From Hyphomicrobiales bacterium (GTDB taxonomy: Bacteria; Pseudomonadota; Alphaproteobacteria; Rhizobiales; Rhizobiaceae): DNA of 64,000 bases. Both the position numbers and the translations under genes were made by a program. The notes beneath the pieces are model-generated. The model searched no databases, was not told the origin of the DNA, and saw only the letters and a program-made list of their open reading frames with translations. The stretch is taken from positions 5,882 through 69,881 of the forward strand of contig JAAEOH010000065.1 of NCBI GenBank assembly GCA_024244645.1, read 5' to 3'. This document shows, one piece after another, positions 4,695 through 46,473 of this stretch (position 1 is its first letter; each line of letters opens with the position of its first letter).

Positions 4695-4708
4695 TTGACC
4701 TCAATCAA
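4695..4708. promoter_or_regulatory. FNR-like box, apparently orphan
   Basis: TTGAC-CTCA-ATCAA, one mismatch to TTGAT-N4-ATCAA; no obvious -10 at the expected spacing. Confidence 0.3.
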
Positions 4709-30800: not shown

Positions 30801-31342
30801 GATCGCTTGTCACTCGTTCCGAGATCGTAGCGTCTGTAGGAGCCCGGTGCGCGCGTGTTCTTGAGCGCGTCTTCGATCGGTCTCTGTTCAACCGGCGTCG
30901 CCAGCAGATCGATCAGTGCCTGATCCCTGTTGAGAAGCTTTCGCAGATCTTCTTCCGGCCAATCGCTCTCCCAATTGCCGATCAAAGCGTTCCAGGCTTG
31001 GGTAATGGCAACGATTTCCGCATCGCTGAACTGCCGAAGATTGAGGTCCTTGTTCCGGGCGTTGGTAATTTCCGTATACTTTTTCATAAAGTGCGTCACG
31101 ACAATAAAAGGCGGACCGCAGCGTGAACAGTACTTGAGCATTTTTTCTTCGCTGTGACAGGTCGAGCATCGTTCATAGGCGAGCGCAACCGCCTCGTCCG
31201 GGGTATAGACGATATATCCCAACGCCTTGGCTTCCTTGATGAATTCCCTGCCAACGGGATTGGGAACCAAGAAAATCAAGGCAAGGACGCCCAGAAAGAC
31301 AACAGGCGATGCCGCCGTGATAATCCAGCACTTCCTCATCAC
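30797..31342 (-). CDS. Membrane-anchored cytochrome c
   Basis: N-terminal TM, CSTCH followed by CSRC. Confidence 0.75.
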   Translation of the reverse strand: MMRKCWIITAASPVVFLGVLALIFLVPNPVGREFIKEAKALGYIVYTPDEAVALAYERCSTCHSEEKMLKYCSRCGPPFIVVTHFMKKYTEITNARNKDLNLRQFSDAEIVAITQAWNALIGNWESDWPEEDLRKLLNRDQALIDLLATPVEQRPIEDALKNTRAPGSYRRYDLGTSDKRS

Positions 31343-31485
31343 CTGATACCTTCAGCTTGTACAAAGAGATGGTCAGTCGCGCTGCAGCTTCTGGTTCCCT
31401 TTTTTGCCTGTCGCACTCCAATGGCTGCTGCGAGCATGCACCCTTTCTCCTGCCGAAACTTCCGGCAGCGATCAGTTTCCCGGTT

Positions 31486-32430
31486 TCAAAATCCCTTCTT
31501 GACCTTTGCATCGACTTCTTCAGGCTGCTTGCGCAAGCCGCCTCTAACGTAACCACCGCCCTTAAGCGCGCCTTCGCCACGCCCGGCTAGCGATAATTCG
31601 GTTTCCTCCTGGGCATCGTTGAAGTCGTCACTCTGGTTCGCCGTCAATGCATCAATATCGCCGGCAATCGGTTTGAAAGTCGTTTTCGGGTTCAGATATT
31701 CCTCGACTGTCTTCGGCGGTTTGGTGTCCGCCATCATCCGAATCCAGGCGACGACGTTCCAAATGTCCTGATCCTGCAGCAAATTGCCCCAAGCCGGCAT
31801 CGACGAAGACAGGTAGACTTCTTCACCACCGCCTTTGATCACTGTGAACAGCTGCAGATTAGACTTCTTGTTCATGTAGTCACCGTCGGTCAGGATACGC
31901 GGACGCGGCTCGATCTCCGAAGCGCTCGGCCCATCACCCTGCAAGCCCCAGCCGTGGCAGGCGATGCAATAGACGTAGTACCACTGTTTACCTTCATTGG
32001 GATCCGCACCCGGGACCAAGGTGGTTTTGAACGCCGGGGACCAATTGTTGGTCCATTGGTTGTAGACCGATTCACCCTCAGCCGGTTTTTCGACACGGTC
32101 CCACAATTCGGTTTTGCCGCCCTTACCTCCGTAGCCACTATCGCCCCGCGAGGGGGTGGTACCCTCGGTCCTTTTGCCGACGCCGGTCAAATAGTCGAAA
32201 GGAGCGACGCCATAGGTACTACCGGACACGCCCGAACTCATCAGCTCGGCTTCATCATCATAGGCCGCCGCGGCCGCTTCCAGTTCTGCTTCGGTGCGAA
32301 CCGGGCACACCACTTTGGTGCCGTCATAAAGCCTGCACCTTTCGGTCTCCGCGAACGATCCCGAATATGTCGACGCCGCAATTGCGGCACCCAACGCCAC
32401 CGCCCATTTGATCCTATTTTTTTGCTGCAT
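31486..32430 (-). CDS. Periplasmic monoheme cytochrome c with a long N-terminal extension
   Basis: CIACH, MPAWG; first 29 aa identical to the NosZ-like protein. Confidence 0.88.
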   Translation of the reverse strand: MQQKNRIKWAVALGAAIAASTYSGSFAETERCRLYDGTKVVCPVRTEAELEAAAAAYDDEAELMSSGVSGSTYGVAPFDYLTGVGKRTEGTTPSRGDSGYGGKGGKTELWDRVEKPAEGESVYNQWTNNWSPAFKTTLVPGADPNEGKQWYYVYCIACHGWGLQGDGPSASEIEPRPRILTDGDYMNKKSNLQLFTVIKGGGEEVYLSSSMPAWGNLLQDQDIWNVVAWIRMMADTKPPKTVEEYLNPKTTFKPIAGDIDALTANQSDDFNDAQEETELSLAGRGEGALKGGGYVRGGLRKQPEEVDAKVKKGF

Positions 32431-32672
32431 TCTTTAGTTCTCCCTGTATATCACGATCAGCTTCCAGAATTGGTCAGCTGGCTCGCCGTTTGGCTAATCA
32501 AGGGCAGCGGGATTTGGTGCATGGACGCACTTCCCACTATAGCTAGAACGATTGTCAGCATAATTCTGTTTTCAGCCGAGCAACTTGACTTAAATCAATC
32601 CACGCCTCACGCGTGCTCTCGCGCGACGCTATGTCGCATGGACCACGGTCATCCGCGATACCAACGAGCAGC
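32345..32672 (-). repeat. Direct repeat copy 1 (promoter + RBS + signal-peptide codons)
   Basis: 328 bp, 3 mismatches seen versus 38827-39154. Confidence 0.95.
32585..32598. promoter_or_regulatory. FNR-type box
   Basis: TTGAC-TTAA-ATCAA; TATGCT -10 on the minus strand (32562-32557) at class II spacing. Confidence 0.7.
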
Positions 32673-32764
32673 GCTATAAAGAGTAGGCACGGCAAGACAA
32701 CTTCACGATTTACGTTAGCTTATCGCAGGCCCATTGGACTTCGCGGGTGATCAGGACGCGAGAC

Positions 32765-33781
32765 CTATTTCAGCCACAGCTCCAGAATATCTTCGCCATG
32801 CAGTTTGTTGAGTGTGTTCTGCGAAATATCAGTGAACCAGATGTCGCCATTACAACCTACCGCGATGTCGTTTGGCTCTGTTTTTCCCAGCGCAACCTTT
32901 ACCTCCAGGAGTCTCCTGGAAACCGGGTTCATGGCTCCAAGCTTGCCTACATGGCCTAGCGTAAACAGGACATTTCCAAGCTGATCGATGTCCAATCCCT
33001 CGACGACACCCCGGACGGGGAGAACAAAGCCCTCAAATTGCCGCTTCGAAGGGTTGAACATCATCAATTTGGCGTTTCTGCGGCCGCCAAACCAGATCAG
33101 CCCGTTGCGATCGATAACAATATCCTTGGGCACCAGGAACGGTTCCGGGAAGTCAAACTCCTCGAATTTTCCGCTGAACGAATCGAACGAAGCCAATTTA
33201 TTCCCTTGGGATTCGATGAACCATATGATGCCCTTAGGGCTGACCGCGAGACCTGTCGGTTGGCTGTTGGACGTGGGGATTGGATATTCCAAGAAGCTCT
33301 CGGTCAGGGGATCAAATCTTCCGAGATTGTTGCCGAAGAACTCAGTGAACCAGATAACACCGTTATTATCGCTGCCGATCCGGCGTGGAACGCTGTCGAT
33401 GGTCGGGACTTCATACTCCTTGAAAGATTTGTCGGCCGGATCGAAGCGGCCTAATTGATTGGCGTCCTGCTCGAGGAACCAAACCACACCGGCGCTGTCT
33501 ATGGTGAGGTCGGAGGGGAAGCTCCTGTGAGTCGGGATGCCGTGTTCAGTGAAGGCCTTTTTGTCTGGGTCGAATTTAGTCAGTTGGTTTGCGTTGGCTT
33601 CCAGGACCCAGATAATGCAGTTTGGGCCGATGGTGATCCTGGACGGCAACGCGTTGGGCGTCGGCACCTCATAGGTTTCGACGTTCCAGCCAAGCTCGCT
33701 GGCAGCCCCAAACGTGAAAGCAAGCAGGCTGGCGAGGGCCGCGTGAGCGATAGCTTTGCTCCTCATTGCCCGGTCCGCCAC
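32765..33781 (-). CDS. Exported Vgb (virginiamycin B lyase)-fold beta-propeller
   Basis: Signal peptide; repeated P..I....G.IWF.E...N.LGRFDP....F.EY.IP blades. Confidence 0.85.
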   Translation of the reverse strand: MADRAMRSKAIAHAALASLLAFTFGAASELGWNVETYEVPTPNALPSRITIGPNCIIWVLEANANQLTKFDPDKKAFTEHGIPTHRSFPSDLTIDSAGVVWFLEQDANQLGRFDPADKSFKEYEVPTIDSVPRRIGSDNNGVIWFTEFFGNNLGRFDPLTESFLEYPIPTSNSQPTGLAVSPKGIIWFIESQGNKLASFDSFSGKFEEFDFPEPFLVPKDIVIDRNGLIWFGGRRNAKLMMFNPSKRQFEGFVLPVRGVVEGLDIDQLGNVLFTLGHVGKLGAMNPVSRRLLEVKVALGKTEPNDIAVGCNGDIWFTDISQNTLNKLHGEDILELWLK

Positions 33782-35052
33782 CGCCGGAATATGAACAGTA
33801 CCGCAAAGAGTGATGCGCCGGAGACGATCAGTAGGGCCGCAACGGCGTAGCCTGTGAGAGAAGTCGAATATTCCTCCGGAATAGAGTCTGAAGCGGCGGT
33901 CGTTTTTACATCGACTGTGGCTGCGGCCATGGCTGCTCGTGCCTTGGTCATGGAAAGCACCCCCAACCTTTTTGCCTCGGTGCCGGTTTCAGAAAACCAA
34001 AGGCGATCACGTTTATCGTCGATTGCCATGTCTCCAGGCAGACTGGCATAGGTCGGGATGTCGAATTCCTTGAACTGCGCCGAAGCGGGATCGAAGATGC
34101 CGACTTTGTTGCCCATATACTCCAGAAACCAGATTTCGCCGCTACCACTGGCCGCGATGGCATTAGGAAGGCCTCCGGCGGTCGGAATCAATGCCTCATA
34201 AAACCTTTCCCCTTTGGGATAAAACACGCTGAGACGGTTGGTTCGCAGCTCGACAAACCAGACCCTGCCCGCTCCATCCACGGTCAGCGTTTCCGGATTA
34301 GCAAAGCGTGTTGGAATTTCATATTCGCTGAATGCGGTGCTGGCAGGAACAAACTTGCCGATCTTATTGGCGTTGGCCTCGGCAAACCAGATGGCATCGC
34401 TGCCGTCGATAGCAATCCCCTTGGGATAGCTGTGCAGCGTGGGAATCGGGTATCCTTGCAAACCGGACCCACCTGGCTCGAAGCTGTAGATCTTGTTTTC
34501 TTTAGGAGACAGAAACCAAACCAGCCCCTTTCGGTCGACTACCAGGTCATCCGGCGAAACATTTCCCTGGTTCGCACCGATCTCGCGAACCGCGTCCATA
34601 TCTGCAAGGAGATATCTCTTAAATGAGCCGGTGGCCGGGTCGAACTGACCGAGGAATCCGGTACCATCATCGGAATTGGCCCATCGACGAACACTGAACC
34701 AGACGCTTCCGCCGGGCGCAAGGGTGATGCGTGATGGCCCAACGTTGCCCCAGTCGGAAGGCAGGGGGTGAGCCTCGAACGTCTTTCTCTCGGGGTCGAA
34801 CATGACGATATTCTTCCCGACTTTCTCGGCAAACCAGACGTTTCCGCTGGGGCCCACCGCTATGGAGTGCGGGGAACTGATTGCGTCTGGGACCACGAAT
34901 TCCTGGATCACCGGATCTGTCGTCTGGGCGTCAGCCTGGCCCCCTAACGGCCCTGCGAGCAGTAAAATGCAGAAAAGCAAACCTGCCGCCCAGGGCCCCG
35001 GATCGGTCCGTGCCGCAAAAAAATGCCTCCGAAGGATGCGACAGATTCGCAT
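33763..35052 (-). CDS. Exported Vgb-fold beta-propeller with a C-terminal TM anchor
   Basis: Same blade repeats; signal peptide from ATG 35052; C-terminal hydrophobic helix followed by RRWR. Confidence 0.85.
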   Translation of the reverse strand: MRICRILRRHFFAARTDPGPWAAGLLFCILLLAGPLGGQADAQTTDPVIQEFVVPDAISSPHSIAVGPSGNVWFAEKVGKNIVMFDPERKTFEAHPLPSDWGNVGPSRITLAPGGSVWFSVRRWANSDDGTGFLGQFDPATGSFKRYLLADMDAVREIGANQGNVSPDDLVVDRKGLVWFLSPKENKIYSFEPGGSGLQGYPIPTLHSYPKGIAIDGSDAIWFAEANANKIGKFVPASTAFSEYEIPTRFANPETLTVDGAGRVWFVELRTNRLSVFYPKGERFYEALIPTAGGLPNAIAASGSGEIWFLEYMGNKVGIFDPASAQFKEFDIPTYASLPGDMAIDDKRDRLWFSETGTEAKRLGVLSMTKARAAMAAATVDVKTTAASDSIPEEYSTSLTGYAVAALLIVSGASLFAVLFIFRRWRTGQ

Positions 35053-35057
35053 GGGAT

Positions 35058-35735
35058 CTACCACGTCATCGTCGGTTCGTAGTAATGCCTCAATTGCCAG
35101 TTCGCGTCCTTGTACGATTGCGCTCCATCCGTCGCGCCGGCCCGGTAACCGCCGACGTTGATCTGTAACTGCCGGGATCCCAGATAGTATTCGGCCATAT
35201 CGGCAGGCGGCAACGCCTGCCTTACTCCCATCATCGGGTTGTGGCATGAAGCGCAACCGGTGGTCTTGGCTGGATAGCCAGTGCCGATCACGCTGGCCGT
35301 CATGCTCACCCAAATTGCCAGGGCGCCGATACCCATCAGCAACTTCACTCCAGTCGACAATCTTTTGCCGGCGGTCTTCTTGCGGCCGAAGACAAACGGC
35401 ATAGCGAGCCCCGCCAGAAGAATGCCGACAGGGGCCCAGAAAGTTCCCAGCTGCCGCCATATGGAGGCCTCGCCGGTCAGGTACCAGAACGGCTGGAAGA
35501 CGAAGATAAGGTACCACTCAGGGGCTGGAACATACTCCCCTTCGGTGGGAAGCGGCGGCATGTTGACGTCCGTCGGTACGCGATAAAAATAAGCCAAACC
35601 GATAACCAGGGCGATGGTGATGGTGCTGACGGCTACGGTCTTTAGCGCGTGGCGCGGCCAGAATCGGTGGAATTCCTGCGGATACGGTGGATCGTATTTT
35701 GGATCACGAATGAGGTCCGGTTGCTCGTCGGTCAT
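35058..35735 (-). CDS. Cytochrome b subunit IV (PetD/QcrC-like) fused to a c-heme
   Basis: FWPRH, PAPEWY, CASCH. Confidence 0.85.
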   Translation of the reverse strand: MTDEQPDLIRDPKYDPPYPQEFHRFWPRHALKTVAVSTITIALVIGLAYFYRVPTDVNMPPLPTEGEYVPAPEWYLIFVFQPFWYLTGEASIWRQLGTFWAPVGILLAGLAMPFVFGRKKTAGKRLSTGVKLLMGIGALAIWVSMTASVIGTGYPAKTTGCASCHNPMMGVRQALPPADMAEYYLGSRQLQINVGGYRAGATDGAQSYKDANWQLRHYYEPTMTW

Positions 35736-35756
35736 GCCTTGCTCTCCACACCGTTC

Positions 35757-36389
35757 CTATAATGGTTCGGATATGCCGTGCTTTTTCACCATCTTGAAAT
35801 GGAAACTGAGGAGCACGAATAGTATCAGCGGCAAAATCACGATATGCGTTATGAAGCTCCGGTAGATGGTAAAGGTGTTGAGCACGAAACGTTCCATGTA
35901 CTCGCCGATAAGTGGCCAGGTAGCGACATAGTCGACCCAGATTGCATAGGACCAATAGGCACGCCAGTCCCAGGGCAGGACAATGCCGCTGAGTACAAAC
36001 AGGAAAACCACCAGGAACTGGAGCACGCCGGAAATCCAGTTGAGTTCCCGGGGATTGTGGTACGCCTTGCGATAAAACACAGTGACCAGGTGGGTGAAAA
36101 CCGCGGCCAGTAACAGTGTCGCGCCCCACCTGTGCATGTTCCTGGCCAGCCAGCCGAGTGGGACCTCGTTGCTCATTAGATCGATACTGTTGAGGGCCTC
36201 TTTGGGATCCGGCGTATAGAAGAACAGCATGAAGACGCCAGTGATCACCTGAAGTATGATGATCAGCAGGGAAATGCCACCAAAACAGTAGAAGAAAGAA
36301 TGCGCCGGCACCGCTTGTGCCTTCTTTGCGTCAGTCCATTGCCTGATGCCGGTTCTTGCGTCCAACCAGTCATAGATTTTCGCTATCAT
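35757..36389 (-). CDS. Cytochrome b6-like (PetB/QcrB) subunit
   Basis: FYCFGG (heme ci Cys), NMHRW, THL, THIVILP, SFHF. Confidence 0.9.
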   Translation of the reverse strand: MIAKIYDWLDARTGIRQWTDAKKAQAVPAHSFFYCFGGISLLIIILQVITGVFMLFFYTPDPKEALNSIDLMSNEVPLGWLARNMHRWGATLLLAAVFTHLVTVFYRKAYHNPRELNWISGVLQFLVVFLFVLSGIVLPWDWRAYWSYAIWVDYVATWPLIGEYMERFVLNTFTIYRSFITHIVILPLILFVLLSFHFKMVKKHGISEPL

Positions 36390-36991
36390 TGGCTTTTGGC
36401 TTTACTGTTGCTCCCACCGGAAGCAGTATCCAAGATTTCCAGCTGGTTGGTTTTCGCGATGCTTTCGCGATCCTGATCGTCCGTGTCGCCCCTGAAATCG
36501 AGTTTCCAGGTATTTCTTTCCTGGTCCAGGTTCAGGTGAACCGGGGTGCGCACGGCGTAAATGCCGCCGAAACTGGATGGCATTTTATATTCAATCGTGA
36601 CGATCGCATGTTTGTCCTGGACCCTACTCTCGATGATCTCTGCCTTGAAACCGGGGGGATACCTGTTGACGATCCCGAGGAATAGGGCCTGGTCGGTTCG
36701 CGATTGGTCGCCGCTCGTTAGCTTGTAGGCTTCGTTGATCAACAGGTTACCGCCCCTGATCTTCGCCTCGGAGACATATTCGTAGAATCTCTCAACCACC
36801 GAGACAGCAGTTTCTTCGGGTAGTGGTGTTTCCTGATACCCAAAATTGATAGCAGCGAAGCCGGCACCGGCCAGCAGCAAAGCCGTGAACAAACCAAAAA
36901 AAAGAGCCTTCATGCGCAAATCTTGCAACATCTCTCGTCCGGATTTCCGCACAGTCCAAAATTCCTTGTCCTGCGGCGGTACTGCGCCCAA
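36386..36991 (-). CDS. Membrane-anchored periplasmic hypothetical protein
   Basis: Single TM helix (start may be ATG 36913); no Cys; ATGA-coupled to cytochrome b6. Confidence 0.7.
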   Translation of the reverse strand: MGAVPPQDKEFWTVRKSGREMLQDLRMKALFFGLFTALLLAGAGFAAINFGYQETPLPEETAVSVVERFYEYVSEAKIRGGNLLINEAYKLTSGDQSRTDQALFLGIVNRYPPGFKAEIIESRVQDKHAIVTIEYKMPSSFGGIYAVRTPVHLNLDQERNTWKLDFRGDTDDQDRESIAKTNQLEILDTASGGSNSKAKSQ

Positions 36992-37098
36992 GCCGGGTGC
37001 CGAGCTTGCCGCTGTCGTTTCGTTCTCCGGTGCTGGCCGGTAACGCTTAAGCCTTGCAGCGGTGAAGCGCCCCTACCGGATCTACTAGCCGTGTCGCG

Positions 37099-37120
37099 CC
37101 TCCCGTTTTGCAACGGGAGG
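37099..37120. terminator. Hairpin downstream of the nosZ-like gene
   Basis: CCTCCCGTT-TTGC-AACGGGAGG; no U-tract, so it may be a stabiliser rather than a terminator. Confidence 0.5.
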
Positions 37121-37160
37121 ATGGGACGCAGCAAGCCGTTCACGCGAGATCTCCGGCAGA

Positions 37161-38912
37161 CTAGAGTCCCTTTGCTCGCGGTGCGATCTCAAGCTCGTCG
37201 GGAGAGACAAGACCAGGCAGAGTTTGCGCCTTGTCATACTCGCCCACGGATAGATTCGAGGCCTCGCCCTGAGGATCGTCGACGAAGAACGACCCACGCA
37301 TTTCCAGGTGCAAAGGACCGCAGAAATGCTGGCAAAATATTGCGTACTCGCCTGCGATGTCCGCTACGAACTCGGCTACTGCCGTCACCCCGCGCGGTGC
37401 GTCCAGGTTAGTCCGCAGACCATAGGGCCCGTAAATCACGAAACCCATGGTGACATCCGGATTCTTGGTAATGCCCGCTGCTCGGTCGATGTTGGTAACG
37501 AAGATGCGTACCTTGTCGCCCTTGTTGACGCGGATTTGTCGTGGGATATAGCCGTAACTAAAGGCTTTGACATGGATTTCCTTGACCCCGTCCTTCGTCC
37601 GGATACCTGGCTTCTCGTTGGATTTAGGCAGCAGATAGACCTTGGCCTTGGCTCTATGGGCGGGACGAATGTCGATGGCGGCTTCAGTAATCAGGCCGCC
37701 TTTCTCAGCCTGGCCCATGTTCCAGCGTTTTATCTGTGAGGCGTAGATCGACTTGGCGTTGTGAGGCTCGCCGTCCACCGGGACGATCTTCAGCGTCTTA
37801 CCGTAGGTCGGGCTCTCTTCCCGGGCATCCCACAGTTCGAAGTTAACCGGATAGACCAGGCCGGTCGGATTGAACAGTCCAGTCGAAAATTTGTTCAGCG
37901 AGATAACATAGTCGTTGTTGGCGCTGATCGCGATGTGGCCGGTCCGGTAATGGGTCGGAATCTCATCCACCACCTCGAGTTTCTTCAGATCGATCTTCAC
38001 GTTGGAATCCGAGACGAAGCAACTTTCGTACGCGTATTTGGAAGTCAGGCCTTCCGGGCTATCCTTGCCTGGTTCGTAAGTACCGCCGTCTTTGTCGTAG
38101 ACATCCATCACCGAGTGCAATGGACCGGCGCAGGTTGGGATAACCTTTTTTACCGCCAGTTTTTCGACGTCGATCACGGTCATTGTTGCCGACAGTTTGT
38201 CGCTGACCAGAACCAAGGTGCTCTCGGGAATGACATCGGTGCCGTGTGGGTTCTTGCCGACCGGAATTTCCTTGATGAACTTGAACGGGTTGGTCGAGAA
38301 CACGCCTACCGTGGAGTGGTAATAATTACCTGAAAAGACGTAGCGGCCTTTTTTGTCGACATCAAGGTAATCAGGGGCGCTGGGCGCGGGACCCCAATCG
38401 ATAATTTCGGTCTTGCCGGTGGCAATCTCGGTTTTCGACATCTTGCCGGAATATTCCCCGGTGCCGTAGAGGAACTTACCGGTATCGTCCAGCGCAATGT
38501 GGTGAACACCAAACGGAAACGGCAGTGAAATCAGACGTTCGAGGAAACCGGTCTGCAGGTTGATAACGCCGATTGTATTGGCACCCTTGTCGTTGACGTA
38601 CAGATATTTGCCGTCCGGAGTGAGATTCTTATTGCCGGCGTTGGTGCCGCTGAATACCGGCTCGTGCAGATCGACGCCAACGTCGATGTGACGGTACGTC
38701 CGCAGGCTGGGAAGCCCGATGATTGCAACCCTGCCATCAAGGCCGCCGGCGTTGTACAGTAACATCGGGTCCTTTGTCGGATGATCTGTTGCTTCTACTT
38801 CAACGTTCTGCCAATCAGGTAAATCCGTCTCCGCGAACGATCCCGAATATGTCGACGCCGCAATTGCGGCACCCAACGCCACCGCCCATTTGATCCTATT
38901 TTTTTGCTGCAT
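37161..38912 (-). CDS. nosZ: Divergent nitrous-oxide reductase-like multicopper protein (beta-propeller + cupredoxin), Sec signal
   Basis: AGGLDGRVAIIGLPSLR, DGKYLYVNDK, KNPHG, GPLH, HYRTGH, LNKFS, EPH, CQHFCGPLHLEM; ligand substitutions described in findings, so activity is not established. Confidence 0.85.
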   Translation of the reverse strand: MQQKNRIKWAVALGAAIAASTYSGSFAETDLPDWQNVEVEATDHPTKDPMLLYNAGGLDGRVAIIGLPSLRTYRHIDVGVDLHEPVFSGTNAGNKNLTPDGKYLYVNDKGANTIGVINLQTGFLERLISLPFPFGVHHIALDDTGKFLYGTGEYSGKMSKTEIATGKTEIIDWGPAPSAPDYLDVDKKGRYVFSGNYYHSTVGVFSTNPFKFIKEIPVGKNPHGTDVIPESTLVLVSDKLSATMTVIDVEKLAVKKVIPTCAGPLHSVMDVYDKDGGTYEPGKDSPEGLTSKYAYESCFVSDSNVKIDLKKLEVVDEIPTHYRTGHIAISANNDYVISLNKFSTGLFNPTGLVYPVNFELWDAREESPTYGKTLKIVPVDGEPHNAKSIYASQIKRWNMGQAEKGGLITEAAIDIRPAHRAKAKVYLLPKSNEKPGIRTKDGVKEIHVKAFSYGYIPRQIRVNKGDKVRIFVTNIDRAAGITKNPDVTMGFVIYGPYGLRTNLDAPRGVTAVAEFVADIAGEYAIFCQHFCGPLHLEMRGSFFVDDPQGEASNLSVGEYDKAQTLPGLVSPDELEIAPRAKGL

Positions 38913-39154
38913 TCTTTAGTTCTCCCTGTATATCACGATCAGCTTCCAGAATTGGTCAGCCGGCTCGCCGTTTGGCTAATCAAGGGCAGCGGGATTTGGT
39001 GCATGGACGCACTTCCCACTATAGCTAGAACGATTGTCAGCATAATTCTGTTTTCAGCCGAGCAACTTGACCTAAATCAATCCACGCCTCACGCGTGCTC
39101 TCGCGCGACGCTATGTCGCATGGACCACGGTCATCCGCGATACCAACGGGCAGC
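38827..39154 (-). repeat. Direct repeat copy 2 (promoter + RBS + signal-peptide codons)
   Basis: Matches 32345-32672; ends 24 bp from the IS6 end. Confidence 0.95.
39067..39080. promoter_or_regulatory. FNR-type box upstream of the nosZ-like gene
   Basis: TTGAC-CTAA-ATCAA, same geometry as copy 1. Confidence 0.7.
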
Positions 39155-39177
39155 ATTGACAAGTTAACTCCCTAGAT

Positions 39178-39781
39178 GGTGGTGTCAGACCAATTCGAAC
39201 TGGCCTCAGCCAGGCTGGCATCACTGTCCCCTAAGCCGCGCAGAGACCGCGCCACTCAGTCAGAGCGGCAGTACGGTTCAGCTTGAAATGAATTCGTTTT
39301 GAAAGGCTGCGCTCGAGGTTGAAGTGGTTGTAGACAGAAGAATGGACCGCAGCGAATTTCTGCAAACTTTGCATACTACGATAGCGCTGCATGGCTCGTT
39401 CTCTTCGCCGAAACGGCAGGTGAGAATTCTCGGCCCGGGTGTGCCGCTCACCGTTGATCTTCACGAAAACTTCGTCCGGATGCCACTGCCACTGCGAACA
39501 GCTACGAAGTTGTTGAACCCGCTTCCGACGGATCTGCGACGCGAAGAACGGCCCGAACCTTTTCACCGGAACCGAATGGTTTCGTGGCTGACATCGGTCC
39601 CACGTTCATGAAGTAGATCTTCGACATTTCGCAGCGAAAGTGGAAAACGAACATACATCATCACCCCCAATTGGATAATCTCGGGGCTGGTTTTGAAGTA
39701 TCGAAAGAGTGAGCGTTTTGTCATGGTAGGACGCTACGATACCGCCCTACCCTTCACAACTGAGTTTCCTCTGAAAGAACC
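39178..39781 (-). mobile_element. IS6-family remnant with internal deletion and frameshift
   Basis: MTKRSLFRYFKTSPEII..FPLSLRNVEDLLHERG; WHPDEVFVKINGERH joined to AENSHLPFRRRERAM; imperfect IRs GGTGGTGTCAGA / GGTTCTTTCAGA. Confidence 0.88.
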
Positions 39782-39784
39782 CTT

Positions 39785-40117
39785 ATGCGTGATCTGTGCA
39801 TCAGTGCCGGCATACCGATGACCATCGAGGACACCTGGGGCGGCGATATCACCACAGCCACCATTGCTCATCTCGCACGCTCAACGCCTGAGGAATTCTG
39901 CTTTTCCGCAACCGATTTCAATAGCTATGGAACTGCTAAAATCGCCGAGGGTGCACGGCAACGTGTCTACCGAAAAATGACCGCGCCAGACAGGCCCGGT
40001 TTGGGTATCACCCCTGATTTCGGCATCTTGGGTGATGCTCTACTTGCAATCGAATTACGAGGAGGCGTCGCCTTCGCATTCAAACACTCGCAAACCCGGT
40101 CAGGGCGCTCAGGCTGA
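39785..40117 (+). pseudogene. C-terminal fragment of a mandelate racemase/MLE-family enzyme
   Basis: [28 protein letters not shown]; 5' part cut by IS6. Confidence 0.75.
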
Positions 40118-40248
40118 CGTCATACTGGTGTGCGGCCCAGATGGCGAAAACACGATCAATAGCAATAGCGTGAATCAATTTTGAATCCTTAGTGCACGGA
40201 AATCGCACGGACGTCGCCGTTACCATTTGATTTTACAACAAATTCTTC

Positions 40249-40271
40249 CCAATCCATCATCGGCGCGACGG
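40249..40271 (+). repeat. Second att core (displaced dusA 5' fragment)
   Basis: CCAATCCATCATCGGCGCGACGG; minus strand reads KTLKNNKKMLSVAPMMDW and then diverges from dusA. Confidence 0.9.
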
Positions 40272-40548
40272 AGAGCATTTTCTTGTTGTTTTTCAGTGTT
40301 TTGCTGATCGCTCGTATTGTCAAAACCATAGAAGGAACCTGGCGCGCGCCTCAAGACTTTGCGGCAGACGCATGCGAAACAGTCTCTGGTTGGACCCCGT
40401 TTAACAAACCTGCAACACTCCGAAGTGAGAGTGAAAAGCAAACGCAGATCACCGCTGCCGGGAGGATGACCTCAGGCTGGATCGGCAAATCAAAAAGAGC
40501 CGCATTTCCTCATCACAAGACCAAGGAGGCCGGTACCGTGCAATCCAG

Positions 40549-41421
40549 TCAGGCCGTTTTTTTGGCGCGTTCCGAAATTTCATCCAGCCCATCGGACAGC
40601 GTCGGACGCTCGCTGCTAAAATAGACCCCTATCTGGCGATGATCTGTGACCTGGGCGGCAATCATCGCTGCTGAAAGATCCGATGCATCGTGATCGTCCG
40701 GCAGCGGATGTACACTCATGTCCAGATTCTTATAGGTCATCGATGTCTTGTCGAACGTGACGCATGGCGAAAGCACATGCAGATATGAAAACCCTCGGTG
40801 ATCGATGGCGGCCTTGATCATTTCGGTCAGATGATGCGGTTCACCTGCATAGGCCTGGGCAACCCAGCTTGCGCCGTACGACAGCAGCATCATCAGCGGA
40901 TTCAACGGCTGATCGAAATTGAGATACGGTGTCGTCGTCGTCTTGAAGCCGAGAATCGAAGTCGGTGAAGTTTGCCCCTTGGTCAGGCCGTAAACGCCAT
41001 TGTCGAAAAGGATATAGGTGATATCGACGTTGCGCCGGGCGGCGTGCGGTATATGCCCGCCACCAATGGCAAAAGCATCGCCGTCGCCGCCGACAACCAC
41101 GACTGTCAGGTCTTCGTTGGCTACCTTGATTCCGGTTGCCACCGGCAGCGCTCGCCCGTGCAGCGAGTGAAAGCCATAGGTATTCATGAAAAACGGGAAG
41201 CGCGAGGCGCATCCGATTCCCGATACGCACACCGTATCCTTCTGATCGAGACCAAGCTCCGTCATGGCCTTGCCGACACCTTCGGAAATCGAGAAGTAAC
41301 CGCATCCCGGACACCATGTCGGCAGTGTGCCGGAGCGGTATTCCAGCTTTCCGCTTCTCTCCACTTCCTCCAGTTTGTCTTCCAGGTAGACAGGTGCGCT
41401 AATGTTCATCATGGCTTGCAT
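40549..41421 (-). CDS. korB: 2-oxoacid:ferredoxin oxidoreductase beta subunit
   Basis: WCPGCG, SGIGC, GGDGD TPP motif, NGVYGLTKGQ, SPCVTF. Confidence 0.9.
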   Translation of the reverse strand: MQAMMNISAPVYLEDKLEEVERSGKLEYRSGTLPTWCPGCGYFSISEGVGKAMTELGLDQKDTVCVSGIGCASRFPFFMNTYGFHSLHGRALPVATGIKVANEDLTVVVVGGDGDAFAIGGGHIPHAARRNVDITYILFDNGVYGLTKGQTSPTSILGFKTTTTPYLNFDQPLNPLMMLLSYGASWVAQAYAGEPHHLTEMIKAAIDHRGFSYLHVLSPCVTFDKTSMTYKNLDMSVHPLPDDHDASDLSAAMIAAQVTDHRQIGVYFSSERPTLSDGLDEISERAKKTA

Positions 41422-41433
41422 CCCGTTTGACCG

Positions 41434-43242
41434 CTATTCGGCGGCAATTTTTCCACTGTGACCGACGAGCTGGCGGATTTGGTCGAGAATCTCGCCCACG
41501 CTCATCGGTGTTCCTCTCACCCGGTTCAGCCTGTGGACCGGGCGGCCTGTCGCTCCGGTCACCAGCGAGGCGAACTGGGCTTCATAATTGAGTTCGGGTA
41601 CAAGCACTTCGTTGCAGTCGTCCAGGAAGGCTTTTACGGGCCCGACCGGCAGCGGCGACAGCATGACGACTTTCATGGCCGAGCAACGAATACCCTCCTT
41701 GCGGGCCTCGATCATAGCTTCCAGAATCTCGCCAAACGTTGATCCCCAGCCAAGAACACCGACATCGACCACCCCCTTGTCTCCGAAGCGCTTCGAGATG
41801 GTGACGCCGGGGTGCTTGAGTGCCGGCAGCAGCTTTTGATGGCGCTTGACGCTCATGGCCTCGTGTATGCGCGGTTGATCGCTCGGCCGTCCACGCTCAT
41901 CATGCTCCAGCCCTGTAACGGTGTGCATGCGCCCCGTCTCGCCCGGGATCGCGCGTGGGCTGACACCGTCGCTGGTGAGCTTGTAGCGGTTGTATTCGGC
42001 CGGGCTCGCATTTTTTCGCGGCGTCTTCGAGCAATTTTCCGCGAACGGATTTTTCGACGGCAGTTGCACGGCTTCGTAGCGGTTGGAGAGATAAAGATCG
42101 AGTAGAACGATAACGGGCGTCTGGAAAGCCTCCGCCATCTCGAACGCCTTACCAGCGCATTTGTAGCAGCCTTCCACATTGGTGGGTGCCAGGACGATGC
42201 GTTGGCCGTCACCCGCAACACCGAATACGGCCAGATTGAGATCCGACTGCTCGGTTTTTGTCGGCATGCCGGTGCTCGGTCCCCCACGCTGGGAAACAAA
42301 TGCCACCGCAGGCACCTCGGCCATAGCGCCGAGCCCCATCATTTCCGTCATCAGAGCAAGACCGGGACCGGAGGTGGCCGTGGCTGCCCTCGCGCCTGTA
42401 TAGCCGGCGCCAATGGTTGCCGCGATGGCCGAAATCTCATCTTCGGTCTGCAACAGGCGGCCGCTGTGTTTTGGCATTTCGCGCGCCAGCATTTCCATGA
42501 TCGTGGTGGCCGGCGTGATGGGATAGCCGAAGAATGCGTCAATGCCCGCATCCAGGCACCCCCGGACCACGGCGGCGTTGCCACTCATCATAACAAGATC
42601 GGTCTGTTTGCCTTTACCGCCGGAGGCACCGATGCGGTCGAAATGCAGACGAAAGGTGTCCACGCCGGTCTGAAAACCCGCATCGAACGCAGCGCCAACC
42701 GAATCTGCCAATTCTTTGGATTTGCCCGCGAATTTGCCGCTGATCACCTCATGGAAGACCTCGGCCGGCATGTCATACAGGCCGGCAAGATAGCCGACCG
42801 CAACGATGTTGCGCGATCGTGCGCTGCTGGTGATACGTTCGGAAATTTCGCGAAACGCCACGCCATAGGGCAGATGTGCCGGTGAGAGATGCGATGAAAC
42901 ATGCGCACCTTCGCCTACCGTGGAAACCGGCGTGTCCTCATAGATCACTGTGCCGAACTTGCAGACCTCCGAGACATGCGGAATGGCATGGCTGTCATTG
43001 AGCGAGATCAGGCAATCGGATTCCGATTTCAGCGAATAGACCTGTTCGGATGTAATCCGCGCCCGCGCGATACATTTGCCGAAACCGCGAATTTCCGGCG
43101 GGTATACGTCAAACGCGATCACATTATAGCCGGCTTTGGCCATGGCCTGTTTGAGAATGTCGCCTGCCGCGATGGTACCGTCGCCCGCCGAACCGCAAAT
43201 GGCTATCTGGATATCAGTTCTTTGTTTGGCCGTTCTTGCCAT
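41434..43242 (-). CDS. korA: 2-oxoacid:ferredoxin oxidoreductase alpha subunit (gamma-fused)
   Basis: GSAGDG, GYPITPAT, EDEISA, TSGPGLALM, QRGGPSTGMPTKTEQSD; start ATG 43242. Confidence 0.92.
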   Translation of the reverse strand: MARTAKQRTDIQIAICGSAGDGTIAAGDILKQAMAKAGYNVIAFDVYPPEIRGFGKCIARARITSEQVYSLKSESDCLISLNDSHAIPHVSEVCKFGTVIYEDTPVSTVGEGAHVSSHLSPAHLPYGVAFREISERITSSARSRNIVAVGYLAGLYDMPAEVFHEVISGKFAGKSKELADSVGAAFDAGFQTGVDTFRLHFDRIGASGGKGKQTDLVMMSGNAAVVRGCLDAGIDAFFGYPITPATTIMEMLAREMPKHSGRLLQTEDEISAIAATIGAGYTGARAATATSGPGLALMTEMMGLGAMAEVPAVAFVSQRGGPSTGMPTKTEQSDLNLAVFGVAGDGQRIVLAPTNVEGCYKCAGKAFEMAEAFQTPVIVLLDLYLSNRYEAVQLPSKNPFAENCSKTPRKNASPAEYNRYKLTSDGVSPRAIPGETGRMHTVTGLEHDERGRPSDQPRIHEAMSVKRHQKLLPALKHPGVTISKRFGDKGVVDVGVLGWGSTFGEILEAMIEARKEGIRCSAMKVVMLSPLPVGPVKAFLDDCNEVLVPELNYEAQFASLVTGATGRPVHRLNRVRGTPMSVGEILDQIRQLVGHSGKIAAE

Positions 43243-43267
43243 TTCGCGTGCCTTCAGATTTGTCTTT

Positions 43268-44308
43268 CTAGCCGTATTGCCAAAATGGGGAATCGATCTC
43301 GCCACTCTTGGTCGTGACCAGCTTCTCATTTTGAACTGTGTCGATCGATTCATCCGCTCCCGTCATATTGAACGCAGCGATCCTGCCCATCTTTTTGACG
43401 TTCTTCCAGCCGTAGTAGAACCGGTACTGGTTTTCCTCGGGTGACCAGATCTGGCAAACGTCGCCCGCTGCCCAGATATTCTTGTCCGTCGATCGCAATT
43501 GCGGGTTGACCAGAACGCCGCGTTCGATGTCGACGCCTGCACCGGCCATGAACGCCAGTGACGGCATCAGGCCGCAAAACGACAGGATAACATCGGCGTC
43601 GATGACCTCGTTATTGTCGAGGATGATGCGCCGGTCAGGCCTGTTGCGGTCGCCGCGTTGGATCGACGTAATGGCAACATCGGTCCTCACACATATGCCC
43701 ATATCCTGCAATACAGCGACGAATTTTTGCCGTTGCTCAGCTTCAACGCGATGCGGCCAGAACAAATGATCCTCACCGATCACCGTTACCTTGTAGCCGT
43801 TTCTGACCAGCGAGCGGGCCAGATCAAGGCCGATCATGTCACCGCCGAGCATGACCATGTGACCGCGCCTCGGCAGAGCGTCACACACGGATTTGGCTTC
43901 CTCATAAGTTCCGAATTTGGCAATCAGATTTTTGAATTGATTGAGGCTTTCAGGGATATATCTGCCCCCTCCGCTGGCAATCAGAAGCTTGCTATATGAC
44001 AATGGTTCACGGTGGTGCAGCATCAGTAGTTTGTTGGTCGGGTCGACATGACTGACCCATGTATTGCGACGGACGGAGATTTTCTGTTCGTCGTAATACT
44101 CAGGCGGGTGAAGCAGGAAGTCGCGCCAGTCTGCCGACGAGCTGAAGATTTTGGGCAGTTCGTAGCGGTTGATCGACAGCAGCTTGCCGGCGCTCACCAT
44201 TGTGATGCGGCTGTCACTGTCACGCTGGCGAAGATGTCGGGCCGCCTCGCTGCCGGCGACGCCGTTTCCGATTACCACGTAATGTTCAGTATTTGCCATT
44301 GTCATCAC
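43268..44308 (-). CDS. FAD-dependent pyridine nucleotide-disulfide oxidoreductase-like protein
   Basis: VIGNGVAG, IASGG, WAAGDV; degenerate second Rossmann motif GGDMIGLD. Confidence 0.85.
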   Translation of the reverse strand: MMTMANTEHYVVIGNGVAGSEAARHLRQRDSDSRITMVSAGKLLSINRYELPKIFSSSADWRDFLLHPPEYYDEQKISVRRNTWVSHVDPTNKLLMLHHREPLSYSKLLIASGGGRYIPESLNQFKNLIAKFGTYEEAKSVCDALPRRGHMVMLGGDMIGLDLARSLVRNGYKVTVIGEDHLFWPHRVEAEQRQKFVAVLQDMGICVRTDVAITSIQRGDRNRPDRRIILDNNEVIDADVILSFCGLMPSLAFMAGAGVDIERGVLVNPQLRSTDKNIWAAGDVCQIWSPEENQYRFYYGWKNVKKMGRIAAFNMTGADESIDTVQNEKLVTTKSGEIDSPFWQYG

Positions 44309-44326
44309 GCCGGTTGCCCGTTCCCG

Positions 44327-46171
44327 TCAGATATCCTGGTAGAACATTTCGTTCTTGGTGATCGAAATGCATTTGGTCGGGCAAACCATGTAACAGGCTC
44401 CGCATCGTATACACTGATTGTTGTCGATCCATATGGCCCCGACGTGATCCCATTCGCTGGATTCTTGCAGATCGCCGTATGTACCGTCTCCCTTAATCTC
44501 AACGCCCTCGACCAATTTGATGCAGTCACGCGGGGCCACTTCAATGCAGGCACGGCAGTAGATGCAGTTATCCACATCGATGCTGTAGCGGTGGTAACAC
44601 AGGTAGCATCGTTTGGCTTCCTCGTAAGCCGTGTCGAGCTCCATTCCCTGCTCCACCTCTTCGGTAAGGCCCGTGAAGCGATTTCTGACATCCTCAGTGG
44701 GCATTTCCTGCCGCGGAATGAAATCGAAAGCCCGTTCGCGCAGGGGCTCTTCCACGGGTTCGATTTTAACCACGAGTTTGCGCCGCTCGCGACCCATCAG
44801 CCAGGTGTCTATGTCAATGGCGATGCGCCGGCCGTGACCCACCGCCTCGATCACGGTCGTCGGGCCGTACACGAAATCGCCGGCAGCAAATACGCCTTCT
44901 TTCGACGTCATACCGTTGTCGCCGATCGCCACGCTGCCCCAGCGGTCCAGCTCCAGTTCCAAATCCACATAGTCATTGACCGTTCGCTGGCCGATCGCGA
45001 CCAGAAGTGTGTCGCACTCTTCTTCAAATTCCGAACCGTCGATGGCAATGGCGGCGCGGCGGCCGTTGTCCCGCCAGCCGCCAAGCCGGTTCTGCACGAA
45101 CCTGACCCCCTTGAATTTGCCATCCTCATCGGTCAACAACGCCGATGGTGTGCGCAGGCCCCGGATCACTACGCCCTCACGTTTGGCCTCAAAGATCTCG
45201 TCCTTTCCGACCGGGATGTACTCCTCGGTGGTGCGCAGATGAATTGTAACTTCCTCGGCCCCGAGCCGCTTGGCCACGCGGGCACAATCGAGAGCGGTAA
45301 ATCCAGCGCCGACGACGAAGACCCGCTTGCCGACTTTCTTGGTTTCACCGCGGTGCAGTTCGACAAGAAAATCCAGCCCGTATTCGACATTGTCCAGAAG
45401 ACGAACCGGATCCTTCTCGCTGTTATCGAGATCCTGCAGCGGCAATGGTGTCGCCTCCATCGAGCCCGTTGCCAGGAGGACAGCGTCATATTCCTTGTGC
45501 AGGTCTGACAGCCGCACCTGTCCCTCGCCGATGCCGACCTCGGTCCCGATGCGCTGTTCGACCCCCAGGCGCATTGCGTTCTGCAGCTCCACGTCAAGAA
45601 TTTCCCGCGGCAGCCGAAACTCCGGAATTCCGTAGTTGAGCATGCCGCCCGGACGTTCCTCGCGATCGAAGATGGTGACGTTGTGGCCGAGGGTGGAAAG
45701 GTCGTGTGCAGCCGCCACGCCGGCCGGACCTGCTCCGACGACGGCGATACGCTTGCCGGTTGGCGTAAACAGGCTTTCATTGATGCGATGACCGGAGGAT
45801 TTGAAATCGCCTGCGAGCCGTTTGAGGTGGCAAATCGCAACGGGCTCCCCGTTGCCGGGCCAACCGTGCCGGCACTTGGCCTCGCACGGGCGCGAACAAA
45901 TCCGTCCCAAAGTACCCGGCAAAACATTCGCCATCCGGTTCAACTCATACGAACGGCCGAAGCGCTGTTCGGTGATCATGCGGATATAAGCCGGAATGTT
46001 GGTGAGCGCCGGGCAGGCAGACTGGCAGGGGACGTTTTCCTCGACCCAGCCTATGTCACGCGGGTCAGTTGAATAACGAACCGGCGTTACGACCCTTTTT
46101 CCGTACGATTGAGGGTCGGAGAAATCCTCGTCCTCCCTCAGATAGATCTTGCGACTTTCCTGCGGGTTCAT
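44327..46171 (-). CDS. GltD/NfnB/DsrL-like iron-sulfur flavoprotein
   Basis: CQSACP..GRICSRPCEAKC, VGAGPAG, GMLNYGIPEFRL, EAKRCYLC, C-terminal ferredoxin CIRCGACYMVCP. Confidence 0.9.
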   Translation of the reverse strand: MNPQESRKIYLREDEDFSDPQSYGKRVVTPVRYSTDPRDIGWVEENVPCQSACPALTNIPAYIRMITEQRFGRSYELNRMANVLPGTLGRICSRPCEAKCRHGWPGNGEPVAICHLKRLAGDFKSSGHRINESLFTPTGKRIAVVGAGPAGVAAAHDLSTLGHNVTIFDREERPGGMLNYGIPEFRLPREILDVELQNAMRLGVEQRIGTEVGIGEGQVRLSDLHKEYDAVLLATGSMEATPLPLQDLDNSEKDPVRLLDNVEYGLDFLVELHRGETKKVGKRVFVVGAGFTALDCARVAKRLGAEEVTIHLRTTEEYIPVGKDEIFEAKREGVVIRGLRTPSALLTDEDGKFKGVRFVQNRLGGWRDNGRRAAIAIDGSEFEEECDTLLVAIGQRTVNDYVDLELELDRWGSVAIGDNGMTSKEGVFAAGDFVYGPTTVIEAVGHGRRIAIDIDTWLMGRERRKLVVKIEPVEEPLRERAFDFIPRQEMPTEDVRNRFTGLTEEVEQGMELDTAYEEAKRCYLCYHRYSIDVDNCIYCRACIEVAPRDCIKLVEGVEIKGDGTYGDLQESSEWDHVGAIWIDNNQCIRCGACYMVCPTKCISITKNEMFYQDI

Positions 46172-46473
46172 GTCAGGCGCATCCCAATAATTCCTTTTGA
46201 GTCTACGATGCGCCTAAAATCCAGCGGAGGCAATGGCTTGTGCGCAAAACCACAGTGGCACGAATGCAGCATGAATGTGACCGGTCCACGGATAGCGCAA
46301 TAAAGCCGGGGTCCGGACCTGGAGAGCACGGGTTCGCAGAACACGCTCGTTGACCGCCGACCACCTCATTGTGACCTTCGACAAACTGCGCGATCAGATC
46401 CGCAGACATGAAGAGATCGTTGTCTGGGGCAATTGAATTGGCCCGCAATGCCGAAACAGGCTCCCGGGCTTCC

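Follow-up and report, generated by a model that had tools for sequence, protein, structure and literature searches.

The window analysed here is a stretch of 64,000 nt from a Hyphomicrobiales bacterium (GenBank assembly GCA_024244645.1, contig JAAEOH010000065.1, positions 5,882 to 69,881 of the forward strand). It carries a gene cluster that includes L-nosZ, a predicted lactonase-type (clade III) nitrous oxide (N2O) reductase gene, and a gene for a class I cytochrome c. Both genes begin with the same module, which holds a promoter region, a 5' leader, a ribosome site, and the codons of a signal peptide. A preliminary description of this DNA took the second copy of the module for a recent duplication. 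The comparisons reported here argue instead for an old capture of the L-nosZ module by the cytochrome c gene, followed by recurrent gene conversion between the two copies. The genes and the two copies lie as follows.

31486-32430, minus strand: cytochrome c gene, class I, 314 aa, one CIACH haem site (PF13442, PF00034); the recipient of the module
32345-32672, minus strand: repeat copy A (C copy), the same module before the cytochrome c gene
32673-38826, minus strand: inter-repeat block, with the mature part of L-nosZ and the genes for a 201-aa protein, a cytochrome b6-like protein, a subunit IV-like protein with CxxCH, and two propellers of the Vgb-lyase fold
37161-38912, minus strand: L-nosZ, predicted clade III lactonase-type nitrous oxide reductase, 583 aa (NF052460.1)
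38827-39154, minus strand: repeat copy B (Z copy), the L-nosZ module from promoter region to signal-peptide codons, including 5' leader and ribosome site

Sequence comparison bore out the earlier statement that the two copies are direct repeats of 328 nt with an offset of 6482 nt and 3 mismatches. The mismatches lie at 32479/38961, 32590/39072, and 32667/39149 in copies A/B. Identity between the copies drops abruptly beyond both repeat ends. The longest exact repeat within the window is 134 nt, compared with 15-17 nt in shuffled windows. Copies A and B are the sole occurrences of the module in the whole 6.29-Mb genome, which is a metagenome-assembled genome (MAG) of 436 contigs. Copy A starts 93 nt past the stop codon of the second propeller gene.

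The contents that the preliminary description had assigned to the module, namely an FNR-type box, a -10 element, a ribosome-binding site, and the first 29 codons, were read in both copies. Their positions are listed below.

39067-39080, minus strand: FNR/CRP-type box TTGATTTAGGTCAA, copy B
32585-32598, minus strand: FNR/CRP-type box TTGATTTAAGTCAA, copy A
39039-39044, minus strand: -10-like hexamer TATGCT, copy B, by sequence reading
32557-32562, minus strand: -10-like hexamer TATGCT, copy A, by sequence reading
38921-38926, minus strand: Shine-Dalgarno sequence GGGAGA, 8 nt ahead of the ATG, copy B
32439-32444, minus strand: Shine-Dalgarno sequence GGGAGA, 8 nt ahead of the ATG, copy A
38826-38912, minus strand: 29 codons of the predicted Sec-type signal peptide MQQKNRIKWAVALGAAIAASTYSGSFA and the following ET, on L-NosZ
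32344-32430, minus strand: the same 29 signal-peptide codons, on the cytochrome c

The genes of both copies are on the minus strand, and about 75 nt of sequence precede the box inside each copy. The box reads TTGATTTA(A/G)GTCAA and matches 9 of the 10 consensus positions of TTGAT-N4-ATCAA. TATGCT lies 22 nt downstream, so that the box centre would fall near -41.5 of the presumed transcription start, which is class II geometry. Box and hexamer together form a candidate class II FNR/CRP-dependent promoter. At least four strong CRP/FNR-family (HTH_Crp_2) regulators of 231-280 aa are encoded in the genome. The pattern TTGAY-N4-RTCAA was found 6 times in the window, against 0.29 expected, and this excess suggests a local FNR-type regulon. 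A terminator scan gave nothing convincing between the second propeller gene and copy A; its sole match was a weak 5-bp hairpin immediately upstream of the box, in both copies.

Between the promoter elements and the ribosome site, each copy has a leader RNA of about 120 nt. An Rfam scan of positions 31000-41000 at E <= 1 returned no match; the leader is therefore no known riboswitch or small RNA. The RNAalifold consensus for the 5' leaders of 16 module copies was a single 5-bp hairpin of -1.96 kcal/mol, which is too weak for a conserved structure. Two hairpin-forming segments recur in the 5' leaders across the clade described below. One is GYGCGTCCATGCRC (window 32510-32523 / 38992-39005), and the other is AAGTCAGC...GCTGRCTT (32465-32495 / 38947-38977), which lies just 5' of the ribosome site.

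The 29 codons are identical in both copies and encode MQQKNRIKWAVALGAAIAASTYSGSFAET. By inspection, the leader MQQKNRIK-WAVALGAAIAAS-TYSGSFA, followed by ET, has a basic n-region, an Ala-rich hydrophobic core, and a small-x-small (SFA) cleavage site, with neither a twin-arginine motif nor a lipobox. It was accordingly read as a putative Sec (type I) signal peptide, whose predicted cleavage site lies at the repeat end in codon 29.

As had been claimed, the mature proteins behind this shared leader are unrelated; one is an L-NosZ of 583 aa, the other a class I cytochrome c of 314 aa. L-NosZ scored 803.6 bits against NCBIfam NF052460.1 (cut-off 700), with a match over model positions 1-480 of 480. 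The canonical NosZ models gave 171 and 121 bits (cut-off 625). The CuA motif CQHFCGPLHLEM (C-x3-C-x3-H-x2-M, C-terminal cupredoxin domain) is present in the translation, and its ligands C527, C531, H535, and M538 are invariant in 16 homologs; the Cupredoxin_1 match is weak. With a family score above the cut-off, the copy B gene is assigned to clade III L-NosZ, and N2O reduction is its predicted function.

Orthologs of the cytochrome c gene directly adjoin L-nosZ in clusters of the Gallionella/Zetaproteobacteria type and lie nearby in most other proteobacterial clusters. Because of this proximity, the cytochrome c would fit the role of redox partner (electron donor) of L-NosZ. In nearly all orthologs, the mature protein starts with (E)(K/R)RC-x9-10-CP, here ERCRLYDGTKVVCP (window 32300-32343). 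This conserved Cys pair stands directly after the cleavage site, well ahead of the CIACH haem site. Downstream of the gene follow a gene for a 181-aa CxxCH protein and then a GldA/F/G-like ABC system.

A near-identical repeat of 328 nt is difficult for short reads, and in a MAG of 436 contigs one copy, or the order of segments around the repeat, could have been made by the assembler. Another path through the assembly graph, in which flank, repeat, and cytochrome c gene are joined and the 6.5-kb block forms a separate circle, is formally possible. Two further assemblies, GCA_024449835.1 and GCA_024449665.1, bear on this explanation. Their contigs carry exactly the L-NosZ and the cytochrome c of the window, and in each assembly the L-nosZ contig and the cytochrome c contig start at the same base. 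This shared start is 55 nt before the ATG and 141 nt inside the repeat, and the first 141 nt are identical. A de Bruijn assembler with k=141 would be expected to break its contigs in this way wherever a real repeat has two contexts. Both continuations from the identical 141-nt node are thus present in two assemblies, and one contig of 6444 nt, with its start in copy B and its end in copy A, joins the two copies. The segment order of the window is also the order in six relatives, the copies of which are diverged enough for unambiguous assembly. Moreover, an artefact would not yield correct in-frame fusions to two different conserved mature proteins. The repeat was thus confirmed as real, and an assembly artefact is highly improbable.

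The same assemblies differ at site 38961/32479. In the window, the coding strand has G in the L-nosZ copy and A in the cytochrome c copy. A is found in both contigs of GCA_024449835.1 and G in both contigs of GCA_024449665.1; a shared k-mer node cannot phase alleles. The pattern may stem from conversion that is still under way in the population, or from the k-mer node that the contigs have in common.

The age of the repeat was assessed in 80 L-nosZ loci with flanks, which were collected by a search with L-NosZ and are designated by L numbers. Within each locus, the 400 nt that precede mature L-NosZ were locally aligned with the 400 nt that precede the mature cytochrome c. The score was at least 146 in seven genomes, that of the window (WIN) included, and at most 28 (background) in all other loci, including those with the same gene order. 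The identity of the two copies and the aligned length in these seven two-copy genomes were as follows.

This genome (WIN): 99%, 331 nt
L101: 92%, 383 nt
L020: 83%, 385 nt
L019: 82%, 381 nt
L104: 81%, 371 nt
L017: 77%, 344 nt
L018: 77%, 298 nt

The six other two-copy genomes encode an L-NosZ that is 90-94% identical to that of the window, and they have the module at the same two sites. Where a lineage is named, the members of this clade are Rhodospirillaceae or Alphaproteobacteria MAGs. Similarity of the copies ends on the 3' side at the signal-peptide cleavage site in 7/7 genomes. The FNR-type box is retained in 12 of the 14 module copies, and in L019, L020, and L104 the best -10-like hexamer of the alignment stands about 5 nt nearer to the box. 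The exact leader had no match in the metagenome contigs of the JGI. A degenerate leader pattern recovered two metagenome loci, L111, the module regions of which are identical to those of L019, and L110, a short contig without the cytochrome c gene.

A first-time duplication in this lineage only, as the preliminary description proposed, would explain why the copies are 99% identical, and the window alone holds nothing contrary to it. The relatives do not support it. In six other genomes the copies occupy the same pair of sites and end at the same 3' boundary, at 77-92% identity, and both copies are orthologous position by position in L020 and L104. In L106, a locus with a rearranged cluster, the cytochrome c also still has the h/c portion of the common leader. 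Transfer of the cluster from the present lineage to the others might rescue a recent origin, but an identity of only 82-91% among these genomes in the coding DNA of mature L-nosZ speaks against it. A first duplication confined to this lineage is thus very unlikely, and the duplication predates the divergence of the genomes compared.

L106 (2117-11027; L-NosZ 90% identical) has a permuted gene order, propeller1-propeller2-cytochrome c-L-nosZ-175aa-cyt b-subunit IV-180aa-ABC. The distance from the cytochrome c gene to L-nosZ is 44 nt, without an FNR-type box. The retained part of the leader on its cytochrome c spans 55 nt at 84% identity, and L106 therefore derives from the layout with two modules. 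A single crossover of repeat by repeat was considered as the source of the permutation and was rejected, because such a crossover cannot yield this order.

The two copies of a genome have evolved in concert. In the alignment, lineage-specific substitutions and indels are common to both copies of a genome. Copy identity is 74-99% within genomes, whereas it is 45-64% for orthologous copies (WIN versus the others). In the maximum-likelihood tree, the copy pairs of WIN, L017, and L101 are each sisters (support 100/99-100). When all cytochrome c copies were constrained to one group, the best tree was 597 log-likelihood units worse, with a p-AU of 1.3e-52. The preliminary description had also considered that orthologs might carry independently diverged but similar leaders. 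This proved true in part, as copies of 77-92% identity do exist in relatives. The grouping by genome points to recent gene conversion between old copies as the source of the near-identity in the window.

L020 and L104 form the exception. Their cytochrome c copies, L020_C and L104_C, group by position (100/99), and their L-nosZ DNA is 93% identical. Both copies were therefore already in their common ancestor, with no exchange since. This pattern argues for an old duplication with episodic gene conversion, rather than for a duplication repeated in each genome. Among the genomes compared, the divergence of 0.9% in WIN would mark the most recent conversion event.

Some blocks are conserved across all genomes, namely the box, the stretch surrounding GATATAC-GGGGAGAA-ATG, and, within the leader, the AALG portion. 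Purifying selection on two copies that evolve independently and exchange no sequence could account for these three blocks. It cannot give indels and substitutions that are lineage-specific and common to both copies while orthologs are 45-64% identical, nor 99% identity across 328 nt, and the grouping by genome contradicts it at the p-AU given above. We regard selection without exchange as extremely improbable.

The direction of the capture was read from outgroup loci. In seven outgroups with the same gene order (L022, L025, L026, L029, L030, L031, and L069), the cytochrome c gene is separated from the second propeller gene by a spacer of 33-70 nt that has no box. The corresponding spacer in the two-copy clade is 337-851 nt. 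TTGA-N6-TCAA boxes were found at most 400 nt upstream of the mature L-nosZ start in about 20 outgroup loci, and upstream of the cytochrome c in one outgroup locus only, L041. The L-NosZ leader consensus over 16 diverse homologs is MQxKxK, as in the shared leader, whereas outgroup cytochrome c leaders are of the MKNxKLK type. As both the box and MQxKxK occur at outgroup L-nosZ, and neither at the cytochrome c of outgroups with the same gene order, L-nosZ is the donor and the cytochrome c gene is the recipient. The claim that one gene had captured the expression and export module of the other is thus supported by boxes, spacers, and leaders alike, and the comparison of N-termini across homologous clusters points to L-nosZ as the source.

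The box of L041, a Sedimenticola MAG, belongs to a cytochrome c ortholog (L041:19290-20240) that lies 2.7 kb from the rest of its cluster. This gene has its own TTGACGCAGGTCAA box, 251 nt from the mature start as in the clade of the window. Its upstream region is unrelated to that of the L-nosZ of L041. This box may have arisen independently to serve a regulatory need like that of the clade.

Taken together, an old capture of the L-nosZ module with recurrent gene conversion, very recent in this genome, is in our judgement the highly probable explanation. The repeat would be the 5' module of L-nosZ, with an activator box, a weak -10, a leader of about 120 nt, a ribosome site, and a Sec signal peptide up to the cleavage site. 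In the common ancestor of a Rhodospirillaceae-like clade, a copy of this module would have been placed in frame before the mature part of the cytochrome c, so that the original signal peptide of the cytochrome c was lost and replaced by that of the module. The cytochrome c gene, five genes downstream of L-nosZ, would thereby have gained a promoter of the L-nosZ type as a second regulated start point. Paralogous sequences can be kept alike by RecA-dependent exchange between direct repeats, the presumed mechanism here. The two copies, about 6.5 kb apart and in direct orientation, would have been homogenised repeatedly by non-reciprocal homologous recombination (gene conversion), in a tract bounded on the 3' side where the mature proteins become unrelated. 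With 3 differences in 328 nt, the last conversion in this genome would be very recent. As a consequence, one oxygen- or NO-sensing regulator would switch on both the reductase and its likely donor cytochrome, their translation would begin in identical initiation regions, and both proteins would be exported by the Sec route. The cytochrome would then be produced at the time and place of the reductase.

Several points weigh against this account or limit its support. At the deeper nodes, repeated re-copying and gene conversion, which are nearly the same mechanism, cannot be separated formally. Both copies of L101, as well as L017_C, have a degenerate box, which thus appears dispensable in places. 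A generic sigma-70 scan found no full -35/-10 promoter in copy A or B, although an activator-dependent promoter is expected to lack one. The evidence for both copies in the window contig is assembled sequence. The two additional assemblies and the window genome may stem from one study, and their independence is therefore partial.

The preliminary description also held that the repeats allow RecA-mediated events on the 6.5-kb block. Deletion or tandem duplication of this block by the repeats is a reasonable expectation and could occur. It is tempting to go further and to view gene conversion as a selected 'stoichiometry lock' that matches L-NosZ and cytochrome c, the repeats as a reversible deletion/amplification switch that gives subpopulations with and without N2O respiration, or both. 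We consider such a function unlikely.

The cluster as a whole very probably came from elsewhere. Two gene remnants lie upstream of copy B.

39231-39566, minus strand: IS6/IS240-family transposase remnant, just upstream of copy B (PF13610, E = 1.9e-7)
39785-40117, plus strand: C-terminal fragment of an enolase-superfamily gene

These two fragments take up the 1.4 kb that separate korB from the L-nosZ module. By sequence reading, a broken N-terminal part of the transposase probably reaches to about 39724. The flank from korB on (40540-46239) has 88% DNA identity to the same-genus genome G005, and the match ends at 40540. L-NosZ was found in 0/16 same-genus genomes, and canonical-NosZ-like matches (about 30% identity) were found in 13/16. 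No canonical NosZ was found in the window genome, in which the best TIGR04244 match is L-NosZ itself with 98 bits. Because synteny stops at 40540, L-NosZ is absent from the 16 same-genus genomes, a remnant of an insertion sequence (IS) lies upstream, and IS240-type open reading frames (ORFs) are present in L100, the L-nosZ cluster is very probably acquired DNA. One type of N2O reductase may have replaced the other in this genome.

The same neighbourhood raises the question of whether the module itself is mobile, as a miniature inverted-repeat element (MITE), an IS fragment, or an integron-type cassette that carries promoter and leader. The IS6-family remnant stands 77 nt upstream of copy B, and in the relative L100 the IS240-type ORFs also lie upstream of L-nosZ, as such an element would predict. 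A mobile element would not be expected to have two copies only in 6.29 Mb, however, and neither terminal inverted repeats nor flanking duplications were found at the copy ends. The lack of an Rfam match and the lack of the exact leader in JGI metagenome contigs also argue against it, as does the confinement of the module to the same two conserved sites across the clade. A cassette-like origin is scarcely credible.

The upstream homology box (UHB) of the Borrelia burgdorferi cp32 plasmids is the closest described parallel. In the OspE/OspF-related (Erp) families, as here, dissimilar exported proteins have a near-identical promoter region that is spread and kept by recombination. The leader peptide is reportedly also common to Borrelia UHB families. 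The Borrelia system differs in that it has many copies on multiple prophage plasmids, upstream of surface lipoproteins tied to host interaction. OspE paralogs have promoter sequences (UHB) similar to those of other cp32 surface proteins, such as OspF (PMC7002432). In contrast, the present module has two copies 6.5 kb apart in one respiratory cluster, belongs to an enzyme and its probable redox partner, and carries a predicted Sec type I signal.

Concerted evolution itself is known from tufA/tufB, from rRNA operons, and from the 5' regions of Helicobacter pylori babA/babB. As in those systems, paralogs within a genome are closer here than orthologs, and exchange is limited to the homologous tract. 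Distinct from those systems, in which whole homologous genes or homologous parts are exchanged, only a module of non-coding region and signal peptide is exchanged here, between genes with unrelated mature products. The process is ordinary concerted evolution or gene conversion, with precedents, in an interesting gene cluster.

Canonical nos genes of denitrifiers have FNR/DNR/NnrR-dependent promoters. The present module resembles them in that a box of the TTGAT-N4-ATCAA type and a weak -10, with a spacing that would fit class II, precede an N2O reductase gene; it differs in that the box-bearing promoter occurs twice in one cluster and in that its regulator is putative. Clade III (lactonase-type) nosZ clusters are known from He et al. 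(2025, Nature 646:152, as cited in PMC13477213). Clade III MAGs lack canonical nosR/D/L and have cytochrome and ABC-transporter genes nearby (PMC13477213). The cluster of the window is alike in this respect, with cytochrome and transporter genes and without canonical nos accessory genes. A duplicated promoter-leader module is not mentioned in the clade III nosZ literature searched, a search that did not include the founding paper (He et al., 2025).

Recognition of the clade III N2O reductases dates only from 2025, and the module gives two testable pointers on their electron donor and regulation. It singles out the 314-aa cytochrome c as a candidate partner, the expression of which would be tied to L-NosZ, and it points to a regulator of the FNR/CRP family as the putative switch. 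It is also a natural example of the concerted evolution of a regulatory-plus-export module, and not of a gene, with a series of copy identities from 77% to 99%. In addition, short-read assemblies break at the near-identical repeat, and so exactly at L-nosZ. Such breaks can fragment the cluster in metagenomes and part the reductase from its neighbours in MAG-based surveys.

Two minor observations concern other potential operators. Four TTGAY-N4-RTCAA boxes lie outside the repeat, at window positions 4695, 14098, 19566, and 59124. In both copies of L019, L020, L104, and L101, the module has a perfect palindrome, TCTGCGATGTTTTGTCGCAGA (CTGCGA-N7-TCGCAG), as its 5' edge. It stands about 150 nt ahead of the box, and the L019 sites are at about 9700 and about 16310. 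At the same place in the window, CCTGCGAT is all that is left in copy A (cytochrome c), and copy B (L-nosZ) has another hairpin, CTGGC-TGAG-GCCAG. The palindrome at the module edge may be a second operator or the terminator of the preceding gene.

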